From an uncultured archaeon (lineage in GTDB: Archaea; Aenigmatarchaeota; Aenigmatarchaeia; QMZS01): a stretch of 40,051 nt of DNA. Made by a program: the position numbers and the translations under genes. Location of the stretch: assembly GCA_964386335.1 (NCBI GenBank), contig CAYLRQ010000001.1, positions 13,568 to 53,618 of the forward strand, read 5' to 3'. This document shows, in pieces, positions 6,861 through 15,693 of the stretch. The notes beneath the pieces were generated by a model. The model was given only the letters and a program-made list of their open reading frames with translations, did not search any database and had not been told where the DNA came from. Each line of letters starts with the position of its first letter. Within the stretch, counting starts at the first letter, position 1.

Positions 6861-7439
6861 TTAACAAGATTTCTCAACTTTCAATCTCCATTTATTAATG
6901 GGAAAAATAATCAACCCCGCAGAAATGGCAGTTACGAATTGCATGATTCCAAATGCTGTAAGAAAGGCAACGGGTATAACTCCCAAATTATACAACACCA
7001 AAGCAGAGATAAATAAAAATGCCGCTTTAAGCGCACTTCCATAAAATATTCCCTTCAAATAATGTTTTTTGTGTTTTAGATGGAAGAATTTTACGCTGAA
7101 AATTAGAATTGTATTTCCAATCCAGATGAAGGGGAGCATGAAGAGAAGATAAATCGTCAATGGGCCAAAAAGGACGCCTTTTGTCAGAACTCCAAGACTT
7201 GGAAGAAATATCAGAGGCAGCAGGCTTTTTCCTCTTGTATATAGTGCGCCCGTGATTAGCATGGAATTTACAATTGTTCCAAGCAAAAACTGAGAGTGAA
7301 ATAAAAACAATGGAGTTAAATAAGCTATCAAAGAATATGAACTTATTTCAAAGAGATATTTGTTTCTTGACTGATAAATTCCGGTTTTTAGATTGGACAA
7401 TTCTACGAGATTTTTATAGAAAGTTGTTATCAACGCCAT
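6861..7439 (-). CDS. Integral membrane protein, unknown function
   Basis: 192-aa ORF with about 5-6 hydrophobic spans. No family recognised. Confidence 0.5.
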   Translation of the reverse strand: MALITTFYKNLVELSNLKTGIYQSRNKYLFEISSYSLIAYLTPLFLFHSQFLLGTIVNSMLITGALYTRGKSLLPLIFLPSLGVLTKGVLFGPLTIYLLFMLPFIWIGNTILIFSVKFFHLKHKKHYLKGIFYGSALKAAFLFISALVLYNLGVIPVAFLTAFGIMQFVTAISAGLIIFPINKWRLKVEKSC

Positions 7440-7643
7440 AATATTGATAGGTGATTATGATTATATATACTCTTCCTCGTGATATATTTGAGCAATAAAC
7501 TGCATAAATCTTTAATTTTGGGGGGTACATTTACAATCCGGTTCTTTAAGGCAATGAAAAAAATTATTAGGCAAGGTAGCTTAAGATTTATCAATCCCTC
7601 TTTAGCAAAACTCTAAAAACCCGATATTCAAAAATAAATTTAA

Positions 7644-9101
7644 TTATGACTTCCTTTTATAAAATCTAAAGTAATAGATTGCACTGGCCAATATACCAAC
7701 TGCTATTATAACCATAAGAATTGCTAAATAATCTGGTTGTTTTGGTTTTGAAATCGGTTGTCCTTCTTGCGGTTGTTTCTCTTCTGTTGGTTGTGTTATA
7801 TTTTCTTTTGGATGCTTTGCTGGTTGCTCTTCTTGAACTTCCTCTAAATACTCAACATAGAATTCCACAGAAGTCTCATTAACTATAGAAGCATCTTTCT
7901 CTCCATTTATTTCATAAGTTATTGTTAATTCGTCTCCTTCTGAAACTTCTGGATAAACAAAAGCGTATTCCGGGTCTTTTTCAATAATTTCAACTGTTGC
8001 TTTAGGTGCTGTAACCGTAATTAAATCACTGGAATTCGCAAAGGTTTTTGGAACAGAATCATAAATAATAAAATTTTTTGCTTTCTTCTTTCCCTTATAT
8101 TTTACTTTTAATTCTAATTTTGATTTGTTTTGTTCTATTTTGAATTTTCTTGTTGCCTCCAAATTTGAAGTAATACTTGCCGAAAGCCTCAATAAATTTT
8201 CTATTGCCCGCTGAGACATTTTTCCCTTTCTCAAAACTTTCTCCAAAGCTGTCTGCAATTTTGTATTGTTGCGAAGTCCAACACCAGGAACCAAACTTAA
8301 TTTTTTTGTTGCATTTTTTGCTTTTTTTACCGGAGGGATATAAACTCCTCCGCCAATCCCTCCACCAGTTCCTCCGCCACTGCCTCCATCTCCGCCTTGT
8401 TGTTGTTCTTCCTGCTTACTACCTCCAGCGCTTTTAACAACAACAGTTATTAAGTCTGATTTAGAATCGCAATTTGAAGGTGAAGCGGTGAAGGTGACAT
8501 TTTGAGTTCCAACTGCAGATGCCAAAACAGTGCATGTAAGAGAAGCTCTTCCACCGGGAGAAATCGAAGTCACTGGAGAACATCCGCTCGAGATATTCAT
8601 TCCCGTGCCAGAAACAGAAAAACTCACGGATTCAGCACTTGTGCCCCCACTATTTTCTACATTTAAAGTAACGGTATAAGTAGAATCTTTATCTACTGTG
8701 ACAGAAGAAGGAAAAACAGATAATGAAATTGAAGGGGGTAAAACAACATCAAAGCTTGAACTTTCAGCCGTAGATGGTGAACCCGTAGTGCTAATACTAA
8801 CTTTTATCTTCACATTTGTTTGAATTGTTGAAATTCTTGCAGTTGTCCAGGATACGCTTGTTGTTCCATCTGAGAAAGATTTTGAAGTGCCTTCTTCTGT
8901 TGAAAATCCTGTGGGCAAATCAATTAAATTGACAGTGCCCGAATCGGATAAGCCTGAAACTGTGATTGTAAACGGCATGCCTTTCATTACGGTCCCGCTA
9001 TCTGCACCTGATTGGGTAATTAAAACTGTTGCTGCCTTTACTGGTATGATTAGTGCTAAAGAAATCAAAATTAAAACCAAAACTTTATTTTTTACCATCA
9101 T
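7644..9101 (-). CDS. Secreted, C-terminally membrane-anchored surface protein (Ig/CARDB-like repeats, Gly-rich linker)
   Basis: Signal peptide 'VLVLILISLALIIPVKA'. Ser/Thr-rich beta-type modules ('TYTVTLNVENSGGTSAESVSFSVSG' is CARDB-like). Linker 'QQQGGDGGSGGGTGGGIGGG'. C-terminal TM plus basic tail 'LAILMVIIAVGILASAIYYFRFYKRKS'. ATGA start/stop overlap with the upstream giant gene. Confidence 0.72.
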   Translation of the reverse strand: MMVKNKVLVLILISLALIIPVKAATVLITQSGADSGTVMKGMPFTITVSGLSDSGTVNLIDLPTGFSTEEGTSKSFSDGTTSVSWTTARISTIQTNVKIKVSISTTGSPSTAESSSFDVVLPPSISLSVFPSSVTVDKDSTYTVTLNVENSGGTSAESVSFSVSGTGMNISSGCSPVTSISPGGRASLTCTVLASAVGTQNVTFTASPSNCDSKSDLITVVVKSAGGSKQEEQQQGGDGGSGGGTGGGIGGGVYIPPVKKAKNATKKLSLVPGVGLRNNTKLQTALEKVLRKGKMSQRAIENLLRLSASITSNLEATRKFKIEQNKSKLELKVKYKGKKKAKNFIIYDSVPKTFANSSDLITVTAPKATVEIIEKDPEYAFVYPEVSEGDELTITYEINGEKDASIVNETSVEFYVEYLEEVQEEQPAKHPKENITQPTEEKQPQEGQPISKPKQPDYLAILMVIIAVGILASAIYYFRFYKRKS

Positions 9102-12100
9102 TTGCCACCACCTACTACCTTAAACCATTCTTTTTTTACTTCTGTTGCTCCAGTGGAATCTATTCTTATTTTCACCATATAATCACCTTCTGACCAGGTT
9201 CCATTAGGTGCAATTGTAACCAAAGCATATCCATAATTGTCTGTTTTATTTGAAGTAACGGTTGTATAATCTTCCCCTTCTTCCAAGAAGCAACCGCCTG
9301 TGTGAGTAAACTTCATTATTTTTTCTACGGATATGCTGGCATTAATAATCGGGGTATGGTCAAAGTTATATGCTTTCAATATAAAAGTAACATTATCAGA
9401 TATATTAAATCCTTCGTTCATATCTCTGTTTTTTCTAATTAACATAGAAGTGTTGTTGTAAACCACTATATCCCAATTTGGTTTTTCCTTCCAACTCATA
9501 TTTTTATTTTCTTTTCCAAATCTTAAATTACCGTTCCAGATTGCTGTTGGCAAACTGCTTCTCATCTCAACAATTCCAATTTCTTCTCCATAAAAATCAT
9601 AATAACTTGGAGTCTCTGCACTTAGATTAACACCCCACCAATCTTCTGTTATATAAGGGTCATCATCAACTATATTCTGTGTTAACTTCGCATTATTATT
9701 TGTGAAATCATCCAAAGCAAATATATAATAGGTTTTATTCCTGGCTCCGTCTCTATCCAAATCCAAATTAATTTCTGTTTCATTAACTGCTGCAAAGTAG
9801 GTTGTATTTGTATCTTTAGCTATCCAAACTCCGATGCCCGGCCTAACTTTTCCTGAGAGATTTCCTATTGTTATGCCTTCCCACGGACCCGGGCCGATAC
9901 TTGCTAAGTATAAATTTGATGTGAAATTTTCTCCTATTGAAACATTGATTGCATTGCTAAAATCTCCGTCTGTATCAAACCATGCAACTTTTGCACATTC
10001 ATCAATTCCCAGCACAGAACACATGGGATAATTTAAAGTGCTATTTGCCAAAACTATGTTATAATATACTCCACTCAAATTTAAAGCCATCATTCTCCAT
10101 TTTGGATGATTCCAGTCATGTCTCAAAGGTTTTACTTTTGAACTATTAAAGTTCTTCAAGCCAATAACAACTCCGTGACTTGTATTGGAATTGTTTACAG
10201 CAAGAATATAAAACATATAAGAATGATTATTATAATCTAAAATTGTAATCTGATCTCCCTCATTTTTTGCCTGAACATTTGAGAAATTACAATCTCCTTG
10301 TTTTATCCAGACCTTGCTATTATTTCCCGCATTTAAATAAACCCAATAATTAAAGTCCATGCTTAATGTCCAGTTTTCTGATGTATTATTAGCATCGCTG
10401 GGTATTGCAAAATTCGGACAAGATCCTGACCCGTTGCTTGCAGGATTTGCAAACACACCGTCATAAGTTTTTCCCCATTCACTGATATTGCCCATTAAAT
10501 CCAACAACATGCCATAAGTATCTTCCCTATATCTTTGTAAATTTAACTTTTTAAAGTTATTGATATAACCGCCTTCACCAACACAACTATCTGCCAAAAA
10601 TGCTTTTACTTCCACGAAAGGCCATCTCCGTTCTTCCATTATTTCCTTCCCGTCTTTGGTGATTGCCGCCAAACCAAAAGTATATCTTCCTGTCTCCATT
10701 GATTTGTTTAAGATTTGTGACAAATTAACAATTAATTCGCCTGATGCATTTATCCCCACAGGTGTAAAATTTATATCAGACCCCATAAACTCAAACATTC
10801 CATTTGAATTCTCCAATCTGATATGCGTAATTGTAACATTTGCTACTCCCGGACCTCCAGAAGGTTCTTGAATCATCACAGGAACTCTAACCAGATCACC
10901 TAATTTTATTTGTCCCAAGTCGCTCCAATCACCCGGCTTTACAGTATAAACTTTTATTTTCTTGGCATTGGGAGCAATGCTTAGTAAAACCAATTTGCTT
11001 CCTTCCCCAAATGTTCTTTGCGTTACATCGCTATTTACAGAAATAGGTATTGAGAAATTGCTGGTATTTGAGTAAAATAAGGTATCATAAAGCCCCTCTT
11101 TCTGACTATCTGAAATCATAAAGTACACAGTTGAATTTTCTTTGCCATCGCCATTTAAATCAATTCCTTTTTGTTTTTGCTCATTTGGATCAAAATATCC
11201 CAGCCATTCTTCATTTACTGCACCTAGTTTAAATACTCCGCTCTTTGATAAAGAAGTATTAACAAAAGCTCCTGTCTGTGCTAAAACATTTTGGCCATAT
11301 AGGACAACACTGTTGCTATCCAATTTCAAAACCTTCCATTTTCCCCCATAGGAATCATTTATAATCCCGTTAAGTGGAATTCCCTGAATTGAACTAAAGT
11401 TTGGCGTATCGCTCATCCACAGGTGTGTTGTATTATGATATACATAAACAGGTCTTGAAGAATTAAATTTGGGGAAGTGATGAGTAAACCAATCATTATT
11501 ACCCTGCAGATTCTTAATTAAATTTGCAATATAACCAAAATAGAAATTTGAGAAGTTTTTTGAATTATTTGGAGGCGTTATAACAAGTAAACTCGCCCCA
11601 TAATCCTCAAATTTTTTTCCGCAAATTCCTTTTGCATTTTTTATCTTAAAAGAATAAGGAGTAATATTTAAAATTTTCCAGGTTATATTTCCCGCTTCAA
11701 AAGTCTGCCCTATTGTATAATTTCCGAAGACAATGCAATTATTACTACAATTTAGATTATATGCGAAATGCGTTCCATTCACAGCAACACTTATATCAGT
11801 TCCTGTTTCTCCTTGACTGCAGTAGCCCCAATGCCATTCTCCACTTTCTCCCGAGATGCAATAAGCCCCAGCCATAGTGGCATTATGGATTGAACTTGTA
11901 TTAATATTATGTTGCCCATTCATGTCTGAAGTGCAATTAGTTATATTTGTTGATTGATTGAAAGAGCAAACTCCTGACAAATAATTATTATTCAAACAAG
12001 AATCTTCTCTGTTTTCCAATCTTAATTCTCTCTTTGGTGTATCCGTCTGCTGCTCAATCTGTACTTCAGTTATAGTGGGTGGGAAAACCGACACACTCCT

Positions 12101-15100
12101 TGTTTCAAACTCAATATTTTCCATATCTTTATTTCCCTTTATATCTACAATAGTAAGTTCTAGGTTGTATCTTCCTTTTGAAGAAATTATTTTGGATAAA
12201 TTAACTGTAATTGTGCAATTATTTGCTGTACAGGTAACAGTTGTAGAATTTGCCGGTGGTTTTATATGTTCGCCAATTTTTTTATTCTCTATTGCTCTTA
12301 CGCCTGTTTTGGTTTCATTAAGAATTACGGGACTTCCATTAAATGTATAAGCACTGACATTAATTACAACTATATCATCTGGTGCAAATATAACGGGCCA
12401 TTGATCTTTACCCATATAATCCAGCTTTGCCAAGAAAGGAGATACCCTGAACCAATAGGTGCCTATATCAGTGCCTTTGTTTGTCTTAACTTTGACATTT
12501 GCCATAAGATTTCCCGTCTTATTAATTCCGGTTATATTAATTATCCACATTTCTTCTTCTTGCTGAAATCCGCCATAATCTACAGTAACATTTTCCTTGC
12601 TGATTTTATAATTATAATCTGTCCCGTTTTTTAGTACAATAGGAGGCCCTTCTCTAAACAGATTTATGTTTTCTAATGAAGCATTTGTAATAATTAAAGG
12701 CTGTGGCGTACCATTCATTTTTGACTGAGGGTCATAAGCAACCACTCCAAATAAAACATTGCTGTTTACTCCATACGCTCCTCCCATTCCAAAAGATGCC
12801 ATTAAATTACCTTCAACAACATCAATCTGTCTTGCATCAATCCAGAAATTTCTTATCTCAAATCCAGCCCACCCAAAATAAGTATCATTTGTAGAAAGGT
12901 CGGTTAATTTTAAATCTATATGATACCAGCCTGATGGAAGATTGACCGGATTTATTGTCAGAGTTGCGCTTGAATTATAAACAAATCCTTCAATTACCTT
13001 GTAATCTGCGCCTTTCTCCATTTTCTTCATTAGTTGATCATTCCATAATTCATTAACATCTACCTCCAAACCATCACAATCTGTACAAGTTAATTGAGTT
13101 TTTCCTATATCTCTAATATCAAACAAACTTGCTTTATTTATATCGACAACATTTACCCTTATTGAAATATTTTCTCCAGAGCCAAAAATACAAGGCTGCA
13201 TTTGGCACATTGGTTCGCCCCAAATCATATATTTTTTAAGCATGAAATATCCGGTTCCGGTTCCTTCTTCCACGGTGCCGCTCAAATTTGCCTTGAATTT
13301 AAATTTGAACATGAAAAATCCCTCATCATCAGGGGTAATAAATCTTATTGTCCCGTTAACCAAGGTTTCATTTGCAATTGCTCTATAATCCTCTGTAAAA
13401 ACATCCTTATAAGAAGGCCAAACTTTATACATTTCAATAATTTTTGCATCTGTTATTTTACTCGCATCTAATTCCCGCCTTGTCAACAAATCAGTAATTT
13501 TTAATTTAATTTTTATTGTTTCATTTGGAGCATAGAACCAGAAATCGTCTCCTCTGAAATCTACAGGGTTTGCTCTTGCATATAATTTTTGTATTGAAAA
13601 TCTGGATGTGCTTTCTTTCTTACCTAAAGGATGATCAACACTTATCTTAACTTTATAAAATCCTTCTCTCTGCGGAGCATCAAATATAACCATGCATTGC
13701 TTATGCATAATCTCCGGCGGACCTTCATCAGATACATTCAACAAAGTCGGCACTACAGACATATTTACTATCATTAGATTCAAAGAACTTTTATTTAATT
13801 CTTCTCCATTCTCGTCTGAAACACTAAGAACTGTTATTCTATCTGAGCAATTTACTCCATCGCCCTTATAATCCTCTATATCTATAACCCCCACTTCTTC
13901 GGGAGGACCTTCCATCAAACCTTTTGAAGAGTTAATCAGCATTATTGCAATTGAAACCTTGCTATTTGGAGCAAAGGAATCTACCATTGCTTCCGGACCT
14001 CCAGCAGAATCCAAAAATTGTGTATTTATAGCCATTATCTGCAAAGAGACTGACCTAATTTCAAAAGCAGTTAAAAATTCCTGCTTTTTATTGGAGTAAC
14101 TAGCTATAATATCTACTTTATATTTTCCCTCCGGTTTACCTTCTAAATTTAACTCACTTTCATAAGTTCCGTTTCCTCCTGTTAAAGGAACAGAAGTTGT
14201 AGTTCCATCGGGATAACTAATATTGGCGCTGACCGAAGCCCCATCGATAAGTTGCCCGTCTAAAGTTTTCAATCTTGCAACAATTTTTAATTTTGGATTT
14301 GGCGTAAACAGATAAGTTGGCGTCCCTGCAAGATTTGTAATTTCGCCGTATAATTTGAAATTTTCAACTGAAAAGACTTCTGCAGGCGTTCCATTTATCT
14401 CAATAAAATAATTGCCTGTTCCATTGGGAGCTTTAAAACTGGCATTCAAACAACCCTCTTCCGTTGTATTAACTTCTGTCGAATTAATCACATTGCCTTC
14501 GCTATCTACCAAAGTTATATTTACTGTCTGATTTCCTTTTAAATGGTTTGTAGAATTTTCAACAAAACCCACAAAATAAACCTCTTCTCCACCAGAATAC
14601 ATAGAATCGTTTATTGGAGGTGCCAAAATAATTTTATTTCCGGTTGCAAATTCAACTTCTGCAATAACATAATCAACAGTTTCATCAATTTTCTCACCTA
14701 TTTTTCTTGATTTCCAGATTCTTGAGAAGTTCGCACTTTTATCAATATAGACCGAATCATAAATTCCCGGGAATCTGTTATCAACAAGAACAAAGGTAAA
14801 ATTCATTCCATCTTCTGTCAAATTAAAATAAGTTCCATAATGCAAAATTCCCGATAAAGACAGACCTTTCAGTTCAGAAAAGTTATGTCCGTCTTTTGTT
14901 GTTGTATTGGAGATATTAATAATATTATTTGTATTAACAAATTTTACATCGAGCATTCCCGCAAGATGTGCCTTGAAATATAATTTATCACTAACCATTT
15001 TAAAACCTAAAGGAATTGCTTCATTGCCGGCACTTACATTAACTACATAATCACCGGGGATTGTAAGATTTATATAAGCAGGGTCTGTTGTGTGAATAAC

Positions 15101-15343
15101 CATTGCAAAAATATTATTGCTTCCGCCTATCGACATAGCAGAATGATTTGCAATTAAAGTTCCGGAAGAATTATAAAATTTGGCAACTACCAATGTATGA
15201 TTTGTTGAAGTATCAACAACGCCATCTATTATAATATCCTCGCCCAACATATATTCCGTTTTATCTATATTTGTAACTAATGCAAAGGAGGGGATAATTT
15301 GAACTATAAGAGAAAGTACAAACACCAAAAATATCTTTCTCAT
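9098..15343 (-). CDS. Giant secreted surface protein (2081 aa), N-glycosylation-sequon rich
   Basis: Uninterrupted 6.2-kb ORF. N-terminal signal peptide 'IFLVFVLSLIVQIIPSFALV' and no C-terminal TM. Very dense N-x-S/T sequons (about 20 in the first ~330 residues by manual count). Cys-rich patch around 'CLNNNYLSGVCSFNQSTNITNC'. Confidence 0.85.
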   Translation of the reverse strand: MRKIFLVFVLSLIVQIIPSFALVTNIDKTEYMLGEDIIIDGVVDTSTNHTLVVAKFYNSSGTLIANHSAMSIGGSNNIFAMVIHTTDPAYINLTIPGDYVVNVSAGNEAIPLGFKMVSDKLYFKAHLAGMLDVKFVNTNNIINISNTTTKDGHNFSELKGLSLSGILHYGTYFNLTEDGMNFTFVLVDNRFPGIYDSVYIDKSANFSRIWKSRKIGEKIDETVDYVIAEVEFATGNKIILAPPINDSMYSGGEEVYFVGFVENSTNHLKGNQTVNITLVDSEGNVINSTEVNTTEEGCLNASFKAPNGTGNYFIEINGTPAEVFSVENFKLYGEITNLAGTPTYLFTPNPKLKIVARLKTLDGQLIDGASVSANISYPDGTTTSVPLTGGNGTYESELNLEGKPEGKYKVDIIASYSNKKQEFLTAFEIRSVSLQIMAINTQFLDSAGGPEAMVDSFAPNSKVSIAIMLINSSKGLMEGPPEEVGVIDIEDYKGDGVNCSDRITVLSVSDENGEELNKSSLNLMIVNMSVVPTLLNVSDEGPPEIMHKQCMVIFDAPQREGFYKVKISVDHPLGKKESTSRFSIQKLYARANPVDFRGDDFWFYAPNETIKIKLKITDLLTRRELDASKITDAKIIEMYKVWPSYKDVFTEDYRAIANETLVNGTIRFITPDDEGFFMFKFKFKANLSGTVEEGTGTGYFMLKKYMIWGEPMCQMQPCIFGSGENISIRVNVVDINKASLFDIRDIGKTQLTCTDCDGLEVDVNELWNDQLMKKMEKGADYKVIEGFVYNSSATLTINPVNLPSGWYHIDLKLTDLSTNDTYFGWAGFEIRNFWIDARQIDVVEGNLMASFGMGGAYGVNSNVLFGVVAYDPQSKMNGTPQPLIITNASLENINLFREGPPIVLKNGTDYNYKISKENVTVDYGGFQQEEEMWIINITGINKTGNLMANVKVKTNKGTDIGTYWFRVSPFLAKLDYMGKDQWPVIFAPDDIVVINVSAYTFNGSPVILNETKTGVRAIENKKIGEHIKPPANSTTVTCTANNCTITVNLSKIISSKGRYNLELTIVDIKGNKDMENIEFETRSVSVFPPTITEVQIEQQTDTPKRELRLENREDSCLNNNYLSGVCSFNQSTNITNCTSDMNGQHNINTSSIHNATMAGAYCISGESGEWHWGYCSQGETGTDISVAVNGTHFAYNLNCSNNCIVFGNYTIGQTFEAGNITWKILNITPYSFKIKNAKGICGKKFEDYGASLLVITPPNNSKNFSNFYFGYIANLIKNLQGNNDWFTHHFPKFNSSRPVYVYHNTTHLWMSDTPNFSSIQGIPLNGIINDSYGGKWKVLKLDSNSVVLYGQNVLAQTGAFVNTSLSKSGVFKLGAVNEEWLGYFDPNEQKQKGIDLNGDGKENSTVYFMISDSQKEGLYDTLFYSNTSNFSIPISVNSDVTQRTFGEGSKLVLLSIAPNAKKIKVYTVKPGDWSDLGQIKLGDLVRVPVMIQEPSGGPGVANVTITHIRLENSNGMFEFMGSDINFTPVGINASGELIVNLSQILNKSMETGRYTFGLAAITKDGKEIMEERRWPFVEVKAFLADSCVGEGGYINNFKKLNLQRYREDTYGMLLDLMGNISEWGKTYDGVFANPASNGSGSCPNFAIPSDANNTSENWTLSMDFNYWVYLNAGNNSKVWIKQGDCNFSNVQAKNEGDQITILDYNNHSYMFYILAVNNSNTSHGVVIGLKNFNSSKVKPLRHDWNHPKWRMMALNLSGVYYNIVLANSTLNYPMCSVLGIDECAKVAWFDTDGDFSNAINVSIGENFTSNLYLASIGPGPWEGITIGNLSGKVRPGIGVWIAKDTNTTYFAAVNETEINLDLDRDGARNKTYYIFALDDFTNNNAKLTQNIVDDDPYITEDWWGVNLSAETPSYYDFYGEEIGIVEMRSSLPTAIWNGNLRFGKENKNMSWKEKPNWDIVVYNNTSMLIRKNRDMNEGFNISDNVTFILKAYNFDHTPIINASISVEKIMKFTHTGGCFLEEGEDYTTVTSNKTDNYGYALVTIAPNGTWSEGDYMVKIRIDSTGATEVKKEWFKVVGGGK

Positions 15344-15693
15344 AATAATATATTATTTTATTATATTTAAAGGTTTGTATATATTGAAAAATATACTTTT
15401 TTACTAATAAAAAATAATAAAATAGGTTCAACAAACAAACAAGTCCTTCTTATCCGGCCTAAAAGAGAATTTCCGACAAATTCAAAAAGGATTTAAACCA
15501 AATCTTCCATTTTTAAGAGTTGTAAATGGAATCAAACTTAAGCGGGATCTGAATATATGAGGGTCGCCGCTTATATTTAAAGTTTAAAAAATTGTATTAA
15601 TAGAATATTAAAATAGAGAGAACACACAGATGAAAAATTTTTGAATATCCAATTAAAAGCGCATTTTTATAATATAGAAATGGAATACTAATT

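Follow-up and report, generated by a model that had tools for sequence, protein, structure and literature searches.

We analyzed a 40,051-base stretch of DNA (the window) from an uncultured vent archaeon of the phylum Aenigmatarchaeota, whose genome assembly comprises 1.006 Mb in 150 contigs, has a GC content of 32% and is 94% complete. Two adjacent genes on the reverse strand encode a giant protein of 2,081 amino acids (aa) and a partner of 485 aa (Table 1). An earlier inspection of the letters without database searches (the sequence-only reading) had described them as a secreted protein dense in N-glycosylation sites and coupled in translation to a membrane-anchored protein. It had regarded the pair, if the organism is an episymbiont, as a candidate S-layer or host-attachment complex. 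When we read the sequence again, the coordinates and lengths given for both open reading frames (ORFs) matched exactly. The share of the window occupied by the pair, put at nearly 20%, was 19% (7,700 of 40,051 bases) in a genome of about 1.0 Mb. The proposed ATGA start/stop overlap was also seen, at 9098-9101, where the ATG of the partner (9101-9099) overlaps the TGA of the giant (9100-9098).

Signals around the pair were consistent with joint transcription. An archaeal TATA-like box upstream of the giant might be its promoter, and the spacing between this box and the ATG suggested a leaderless or near-leaderless mRNA for the giant. With this box on the 5′ side and T-runs on the 3′ side, the pair has the appearance of an operon of two genes, whose mRNA may be leaderless. 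Downstream of it, a 192-aa ORF (6861-7439, reverse strand) has its own AT-rich upstream region. This ORF matched no family and was not kept beside the pair in other loci.

Table 1. Features of the giant/partner locus (positions in the window; aa, amino acids; nt, nucleotides; AF2, AlphaFold2; pLDDT, its per-residue confidence; Ig, immunoglobulin; TM, transmembrane).
Feature	Position	Strand	Residues	Remarks
TATA-like box TTTAAATATA	15362..15371	-		archaeal type; 19-28 nt upstream of giant ATG; putative promoter
Giant ORF	9098..15343	-	1-2081	2,081 aa
Sec-type signal peptide of giant	15278..15343	-	1 to ~22	MRK, hydrophobic core, SFA; predicted from sequence features only
MG2 domain of giant	14396..14602	-	248-316	macroglobulin-type beta-sandwich; Pfam PF01835, E=4e-11, 43.5 bits vs cut-off 32.8
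Cys-rich region of giant	11579..12016	-	~1110-1255	poorly conserved; length varies among orthologs
C-terminal half of giant	9101..12091	-	1085-2081	predicted compact, almost all beta
Shine-Dalgarno-like run GGTGGTGG	9105-9112	-		contains GGTGG; 4-11 nt upstream of partner start
Coupling junction	9098..9112	-		reads GGTGGTGGCAAATGATGG
Partner ORF	7644..9101	-	1-485	485 aa; predicted type-I membrane protein
Ig-Ig module of partner (putative adaptor)	8427..9032	-	24-225	AF2 pLDDT >90; second domain CARDB/DUF11-like
Gly-rich disordered linker	8322..8426	-	226-260	pLDDT <50 at 229-257
Alpha/beta domain 3	7836..8321	-	261-422	sequon-enriched; replaced by PGF-pre-PGF in other lineages
Second disordered linker and TM helix	7659..7835	-	423-455 and 458-481	basic tail on to stop at 7644-7646
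T-runs TTTATTTTT and GTTTTT	7615..7638	-		just past partner stop codon; resemble archaeal terminator

The mature giant would have a mass of about 229 kDa and an isoelectric point of 5.0. Its single hydrophobic segment is residues 1-27 and a membrane anchor is absent elsewhere, which agrees with the sequence-only reading of a signal peptide without an anchor. The MG2 domain was the sole significant Pfam domain and was matched in 11 of 11 aligned family members, which also gave scattered weak Ig-like matches (e.g. Invasin_D3, Big_1, FlgD_ig). More than 200 alignment columns are invariant in the giant family, conserved Cys among them. Conservation is even along the protein, with no hypervariable tip except the Cys-rich region, where it falls to 0.14-0.18 per bin and where the BLASTP alignment with the Pyrohabitans ortholog has a gap. 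The best-conserved blocks are residues 561-720, 1361-1440 and 1761-1840, and the final Ig-like domain covers about 1969-2081. Structure prediction by segments followed by a Foldseek search, which had been suggested, was run on the C-terminal half. The AlphaFold2 (AF2) model of this half (18 sequences; pLDDT 82.8, predicted TM-score 0.64) was almost all beta, and its matches in the PDB were generic macroglobulin (MG) or Ig chains with TM-scores of 0.06-0.10. They included complement C5 and C3, alpha-2-macroglobulins (bacterial ones among them), SbsC and PrgB. A phmmer search of both proteins against PDB sequences gave nothing meaningful, and NCBIfam gave a significant family for neither.

The partner has two hydrophobic segments, one N-terminal (1-31) and one C-terminal (454-481), the latter followed by RFYKRKS. 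Its AF2 model (62 sequences, pLDDT 85.9) begins with a signal peptide, an Ig-like domain (25-120) and a CARDB/DUF11-like Ig domain (125-223). A disordered Gly linker (229-257), an alpha/beta domain (263-420), a second disordered linker (429-455) and a TM helix (458-481) follow. There are two short helices at 280-311 and no coiled coil. All the elements proposed before (signal peptide, Ig/CARDB-like modules, poly-Gly linker and C-terminal TM anchor) were thus found, although the Pfam CARDB match at 136-210 was borderline; 29 of 62 homologs match CARDB. Foldseek of the whole partner model against the PDB returned generic tandem Ig domains, e.g. integrin legs, with TM-scores below 0.26.

Sequons in the giant and the partner

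We defined a sequon as N-x-S/T in which x is not proline, and compared every ORF with its own composition, using 1000 shuffles for the giant. The giant has 99 sequons and 27.8 were expected, a 3.56-fold excess (shuffle standard deviation 4.6, maximum 42, z = 15.4). With 30 occurrences, the reversed motif [ST]-x-N is at the chance level. In the same genome, the ratio of observed to expected sequons was 0.98 for cytoplasmic-type ORFs (n = 539) and 2.0 for ORFs with a hydrophobic N-terminus. A several-fold excess had been claimed in the sequence-only reading, together with a manual count of about 20 sequons in the first ~330 residues. The count was exact, and the excess stands when the giant is compared with cytoplasmic proteins under control of composition (3.56-fold vs 0.98-fold), a comparison that had been named as able to overturn the claim.

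The enrichment is not confined to one part of the giant; every 80-aa bin is enriched (1.5-5.6-fold). It was also seen in the ten homologs found first (2.3-3.7-fold) and in all fetched orthologs (2.0-4.5-fold, across 33-58% GC). Among distant homologs, the conservation of sequon Asn was 0.41, compared with 0.25 for other Asn. What is expected of an AglB-dependent N-glycoprotein, namely a secreted protein whose sequons are under selection, was found in the giant (3.56-fold, z = 15.4) and in all its orthologs. This selection on sequons strongly suggests that the giant is heavily N-glycosylated.

The sequons of the partner are mildly enriched as a whole (8 observed, 4.1 expected, z = 2.2), and their distribution among its domains is uneven. 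In 62 partner homologs, we counted 16 sequons vs 45.8 expected in Ig1 (ratio 0.35), 10 vs 117.9 in Ig2 (0.08) and 249 vs 105.9 in domain 3 (2.35). These counts come from related sequences and are not independent, but the contrast inside the family is still large.

Conserved pairing and exchanged modules

We searched 301 Aenigmatarchaeota genomes, 98 of them of high quality, and further archaeal sequences. The two-gene unit was conserved in more than 40 loci, in which the giant orthologs are full length or truncated at an end. Within the phylum, full-length giants occurred in about 30 of the 301 genomes (about 10%), spread over several families. In each of the ~24 sampled genomes for which both sets of coordinates were paired, the partner comes immediately after the giant and shares its strand. 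In all fetched loci with downstream sequence, it follows at a gap of -36 to +28 nt, and the exact 4-nt overlap recurs in five further loci. In three distant loci with very dissimilar flanks, the gene immediately behind the giant is likewise of partner size (519, 507 and 315 aa). Flanking genes differ throughout, and the gene downstream of the partner differs in every related locus. Even the genomes that seemed to have the partner only carry a giant of ~2,550 aa directly upstream of it. This is a remote homolog, which hhalign aligned with residues 245-1105, the N-terminal array of the giant, at 99.5% probability and 22% identity. The comparison across related metagenome-assembled genomes (MAGs), also advised before, therefore showed that the pairing holds and that the distribution is patchy.

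In the same genus, the giant was found in one of five sampled genomes (G260). There it is split into four ORFs of 830, 478, 528 and 382 aa next to an intact partner (G260:C31:9500-19500), which might reflect a pseudogene or an assembly error. A few other orthologs have single in-frame stops. These cases would fit a decaying or nonfunctional ORF whose many sequons simply follow from a composition rich in A and T, and a pseudogene in related genomes was what the sequence-only reading had set as grounds for giving up its claim. However, more than 25 orthologs are intact and full length (2,000-2,350 aa), more than 200 residues including conserved Cys are invariant, and the composition-controlled excess (z = 15, with the reversed motif at chance) persists across 33-58% GC. 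The intact orthologs, the z value and the GC range effectively refute a pseudogene or a composition artefact, which we regard as hardly conceivable.

Conservation of the partner is unequal along its length. Next to the giant, only partner positions ~1-250 match in 7 sampled genomes and ~12 loci. A phmmer search of the Ig-Ig module against 1.84 billion representatives gave only 51 clusters at E ≤ 1e-10, nearly all of them proteins of 400-545 aa with the module directly after the signal peptide. The C-terminal cassette of the partner (domain 3, a Cys-rich knot and the TM helix) recurs C-terminally on many unrelated ORFs of 400-3,000 aa across the phylum. The knot (CxPGExRCxGxxLQxC...) precedes the TM helix in most partner homologs and is missing from the copy in the window. 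A knot and TM cassette is also present on a 1,017-aa ORF of the same genome (contig C52, 1283-1504).

Archaeosortase substrates carry the PGF-pre-PGF and PGF-CTERM regions, represented by TIGR04213 and TIGR04126. Orthologous partners elsewhere resemble them in having PGF-pre-PGF where domain 3 sits: their Ig-Ig module is ~50% identical and a true TIGR04213 domain lies behind it. One of these partners ends in a CGP-TM-RGRLRR tail. The partner in the window differs in having neither a detectable PGF-pre-PGF (TIGR04213) nor a PGF motif, and has a TM helix with a basic tail. Domain 3 as a divergent PGF-pre-PGF was rejected, as hhalign aligned the Ig-Ig module with that of the PGF-pre-PGF partners (49% identity, E=1e-75) and nothing past it. 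A search for exosortase/archaeosortase (PF09721) gave no match in this genome, although the same search detected only 1 of 14 control genomes. Judging from these alignments, the Ig-Ig module is the only part invariably linked to the giant, and domain 3 and the anchor appear to be exchanged between lineages.

The Ig-Ig module may be read as a docking adaptor because it always stands beside the giant and is depleted of sequons, unlike the rest of the partner. Another view is that there is no complex. The giant would then be a free exoprotein, such as a binding protein or a trap of the alpha-2-macroglobulin type, and the partner a surface protein that is co-transcribed but otherwise unrelated. 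The giant indeed has no anchor, all members have MG2, and the weak Foldseek matches include complement C3/C5 and bacterial alpha-2-macroglobulins. The likeness to alpha-2-macroglobulin and complement C3-C5 is that of an MG2 beta-sandwich and weak matches to MG chains; a test for an array of MG domains gave one significant MG2 match and the generic similarity already described. Unlike that family, the giant has no CxEQ thioester motif in its whole length and no recognisable bait region, and the model of its C-terminal half shows no helical thioester domain. The trap was rejected, since the thioester motif and the helical domain are lacking. Moreover, adjacency and the start/stop overlap are kept across phyla while the flanks and the anchor of the partner change, and an adaptor devoid of sequons makes little sense unless it forms an interface with another protein. 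It seems very doubtful to us that the two proteins act apart.

Outside DPANN archaea, giant orthologs with 35-40% identity over nearly the full length, a 3.5-fold sequon excess and the partner downstream were found. One is on a contig of Ca. Pyrohabitans (Hydrothermarchaeota) with 54.5% GC, which also encodes CoaBC (coenzyme A biosynthesis) and a P-type ATPase. Its GC and gene content speak against mis-binning. Other carriers beyond the Aenigmatarchaeota are MAGs labelled Halobacteriota, Hydrothermarchaeota and Micrarchaeota. Given these orthologs and the patchy spread, the pair seems to be an optional cassette, probably transferred horizontally.

This distribution also bears on the proposal that the pair is a host-attachment complex specific to DPANN episymbionts, in which the giant recognises the host surface. 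Most carriers are Aenigmatarchaeota with genomes of ~1 Mb, giant surface proteins recur in DPANN, and a patchy, horizontally exchanged distribution fits determinants of host range. However, full-length orthologs with the partner occur in the MAGs labelled Hydrothermarchaeota and Halobacteriota. No domain typical of host interaction, such as a lectin or a protease, was recognised in the Pfam searches, and the even conservation leaves the Cys-rich region as the only candidate for a variable tip. The host-attachment role considered by the sequence-only reading, taken as specific to episymbionts, is in our view unlikely.

Two further arrangements were observed. A related one occurs in family f18 (G041:C2, G198:C29, G214:C8, G244:C2), where the MG2 protein has 1,500-1,700 aa and the gene resembling the partner (~498 aa) does not abut it but is 3-4 kb away. 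On a metagenome contig (L028:1-11389), genes for a glycosyltransferase of family 2 and a flippase-like polysaccharide protein lie just upstream of the pair, and a 1,081-aa S8 peptidase is encoded just downstream of it.

Relation to S-layers and other known systems

Neither protein matched PF05123, PF05124 or PF07752, the Pfam models of canonical archaeal S-layer proteins (S_layer_N, S_layer_C and MSTP/DUF1608). In this genome Pfam S_layer_N and DUF1608 gave no match, S_layer_N being too insensitive across the phylum. A sub-threshold S_layer_N match in a genome of the same genus nevertheless led to a 739-aa ORF (L055:2-2218) that passes Pfam S_layer_C (42.9 bits vs cut-off 23.9). In our genome, its ortholog is cut off by the end of contig C2 (34482-34835), so that only the C-terminal 118 residues (69% identity) are present. 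This S_layer_C family was present in 280 of the 301 genomes and in 95 of the 98 high-quality ones, including this genome and the listed pair-bearing genomes. A preprint also assigned MSTP-like S-layer proteins to Aenigmatarchaeota.

The closest parallel in organisation is the SlaA/SlaB S-layer of Sulfolobales. SlaA has 1,424 aa and 31 sequons and lacks an anchor; SlaB (475 aa) combines beta-sandwiches with a TM helix and is the more conserved of the two (PMC10903991). The pair likewise has a large, anchorless, beta-rich and (here by prediction) heavily N-glycosylated outer protein with a partner of ~480 aa, and again the smaller protein is the more conserved. It differs in that no sequence match was found, nor any fold match when models of the C-terminal half of the giant and of the whole partner were searched against the PDB (top 50 for the C-terminal half). 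The long trimeric coiled coil of SlaB (132 aa) has no counterpart in the partner, in which an alpha/beta domain and flexible linkers stand in its place. The pair also coexists with canonical S_layer_C and is restricted to a minority of the genomes, and is therefore unlikely to be the lattice.

A second parallel is PySLP, the 'colossal' S-layer protein of Pyrobaculum, which has 2,667 aa and Ig-like domains (bioRxiv 10.64898/2026.08.21.746120). Both are surface proteins of more than 2,000 aa with many Ig-like beta-sandwiches, conserved Cys and candidate N-glycans, and both systems have a basic cytoplasmic tail after a TM helix, which here is on the partner. PySLP, however, is a single chain that has its own TM anchor and forms a lattice, whereas in the pair the anchor is a separate gene product. 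The likeness is one of architecture and we claim no homology.

These parallels favor an S-layer role for the pair, or a role as second outer lattice, with the giant as lattice and the partner as stalk. The logic and sizes are similar to those of SlaA/SlaB, the order of conservation is the same, giant Ig-domain S-layer proteins exist, and the giant is acidic, single-copy and, in its modelled half, all beta. However, the genome has the C-terminus of an S_layer_C-family protein at the end of contig C2, a family that is nearly ubiquitous in the phylum, full-length giants occur in about a tenth of the genomes and one of five sampled congeners, SlaA and SlaB are not among the top Foldseek matches, and the partner model has no coiled-coil stalk. 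The preprint assignment of MSTP-like proteins points the same way. Thus, the pair is probably not the S-layer, as S_layer_C is present in 280 of 301 genomes and the full-length giant in ~10%. The S-layer candidacy proposed by the sequence-only reading appears rather improbable. From the co-occurrence of these genes, the pair is probably an accessory surface structure beside a canonical S-layer and not the main coat.

SPEARE-type giants of Nanohaloarchaeota are membrane-anchored and combine protease/adhesion domains with a cytoplasmic ATPase or nuclease part. The pair is like them in comprising a giant, sequon-rich DPANN surface protein with a small conserved partner gene. The giant differs in having no TM helix beyond the signal peptide and no ATPase, nuclease, protease or adhesion domains. 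By BLAST it showed no similarity to the 2,990-aa HerA-tailed protein of the same genome, which is a different gene. By the features compared, the pair belongs to none of these groups: SlaA/SlaB, PySLP, alpha-2-macroglobulins, SPEARE proteins or PGF-CTERM substrates. Our literature search found no published description of the giant/partner family, which probably forms a two-component archaeal surface glycoprotein complex.

The sequon excess is not unique to the pair. Eight ORFs of at least 1,000 aa, among them the 2,990-aa HerA-tailed protein, have more than twofold sequons and make up 5.2% of the genome (contigs C1, C2, C7 and C52). Four of the eight are on contig C1 around the window: the giant itself, an S8 subtilase (1,789 aa), an ORF of 5,438 aa that has 302 sequons, and a protein of 1,667 aa. 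A small gene (475, 404, 315 and 274 aa) follows immediately behind several of the sequon-rich giants, and BLASTP showed no paralogy between these other giant-plus-small pairs and the pair in the window. The 1,667-aa protein (contig C1, 54545-59548, about 1 kb past the right end of the window) contains MG2 and NPCBM_assoc, has 3.6-fold sequons and carries a second hydrophobic segment, which we took as its own anchor. Its orthologs, of ~1,950 aa, are present in 121 of the 301 genomes, so this MG2 giant is far more widespread than the pair.

A model for the pair

We consider it fairly probable that the two genes form an operon for an accessory, membrane-tethered cell-surface glycoprotein complex. 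The first gene would encode a Sec-secreted, anchorless, acidic protein of ~229 kDa, in which MG/Ig-type beta-sandwiches are joined to a compact C-terminal half of beta structure and selection for N-glycosylation sites acts from end to end. The second gene, translated in step with the first through the ATGA overlap, would give a type-I membrane protein. In order, this protein would comprise a signal peptide, a conserved Ig-Ig module free of glycans, a flexible linker of Gly, an alpha/beta domain bearing glycans, another linker, a TM helix and a basic tail. The Ig-Ig module would be the docking adaptor, which binds the giant non-covalently, and the remainder of the partner would form a long flexible tether that keeps the giant at or beyond the canonical S-layer. 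The giant might then be a glycan-coated adhesive or protective surface structure, and the cassette would be optional and exchanged horizontally among archaea of different phyla. From its distribution among genomes, it probably moved horizontally and coexists with a canonical S-layer. Of the surface complex suggested by the sequence-only reading, the role of the small protein as a tether or stalk is probable, and the S-layer and host-attachment roles were not upheld.

Several points weigh against this model. The binding of the giant by the Ig-Ig module is inferred from sequence patterns, and an adhesive or protective role is guessed from the architecture only. Among RNA-seq runs, a search found none that contains the locus, compared with ~20 DNA runs from vents and sediments that do. 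The MAG labels are those of the depositors and could reflect mis-binning. Artefacts of assembly may account for some of the absences in relatives; for example, a contig of G097 ends inside a partner-like gene. The glycosylation machinery is a further point. The only STT3/AglB homolog of the genome is a 414-aa ORF (contig C19, 2534-3778; STT3 match 126 bits) that ends right after the membrane domain and lacks the C-terminal domain, and a WWDYG-like motif was found in none of the six frames of the 94%-complete assembly. The enzyme may therefore be non-canonical or incompletely assembled. Short STT3 proteins (406-464 aa) are kept in the genus and family, and those of other families of the phylum have 687-875 aa. 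The selection on sequons nevertheless argues that N-glycosylation operates.

Beyond the accessory complex itself, a broader interpretation can be offered tentatively. The family might represent an undescribed class of archaeal two-component appendage, a horizontally mobile cassette in which a rare, glycan-free Ig-Ig module docks a giant of ~230 kDa coated with glycans over its whole surface. Its anchors would be interchangeable (a plain TM helix, a Cys-knot with a TM helix, or PGF-pre-PGF with a sorting signal), and it would project through or above the canonical S-layer. It would be shared by DPANN episymbionts and MAGs assigned to non-DPANN phyla.

Surface structures govern how ultra-small archaea attach, feed and avoid viruses, and almost no giant surface protein of these organisms has a known architecture or mode of anchoring. 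For one conserved family, the model proposed here gives a testable assignment of a docking module, a tether part and a glycan-excluded zone. It would make the pair an add-on to the canonical S-layer and a cassette that crosses phylum boundaries. The short STT3 without the WWDYG motif, beside secreted proteins selected for sequons, raises the question of how N-glycosylation works in this lineage. With an excess on exposed parts and a depletion on the adaptor, the opposite pattern of sequons could offer a general means of locating interfaces between proteins on archaeal glycoproteins from sequence alone.

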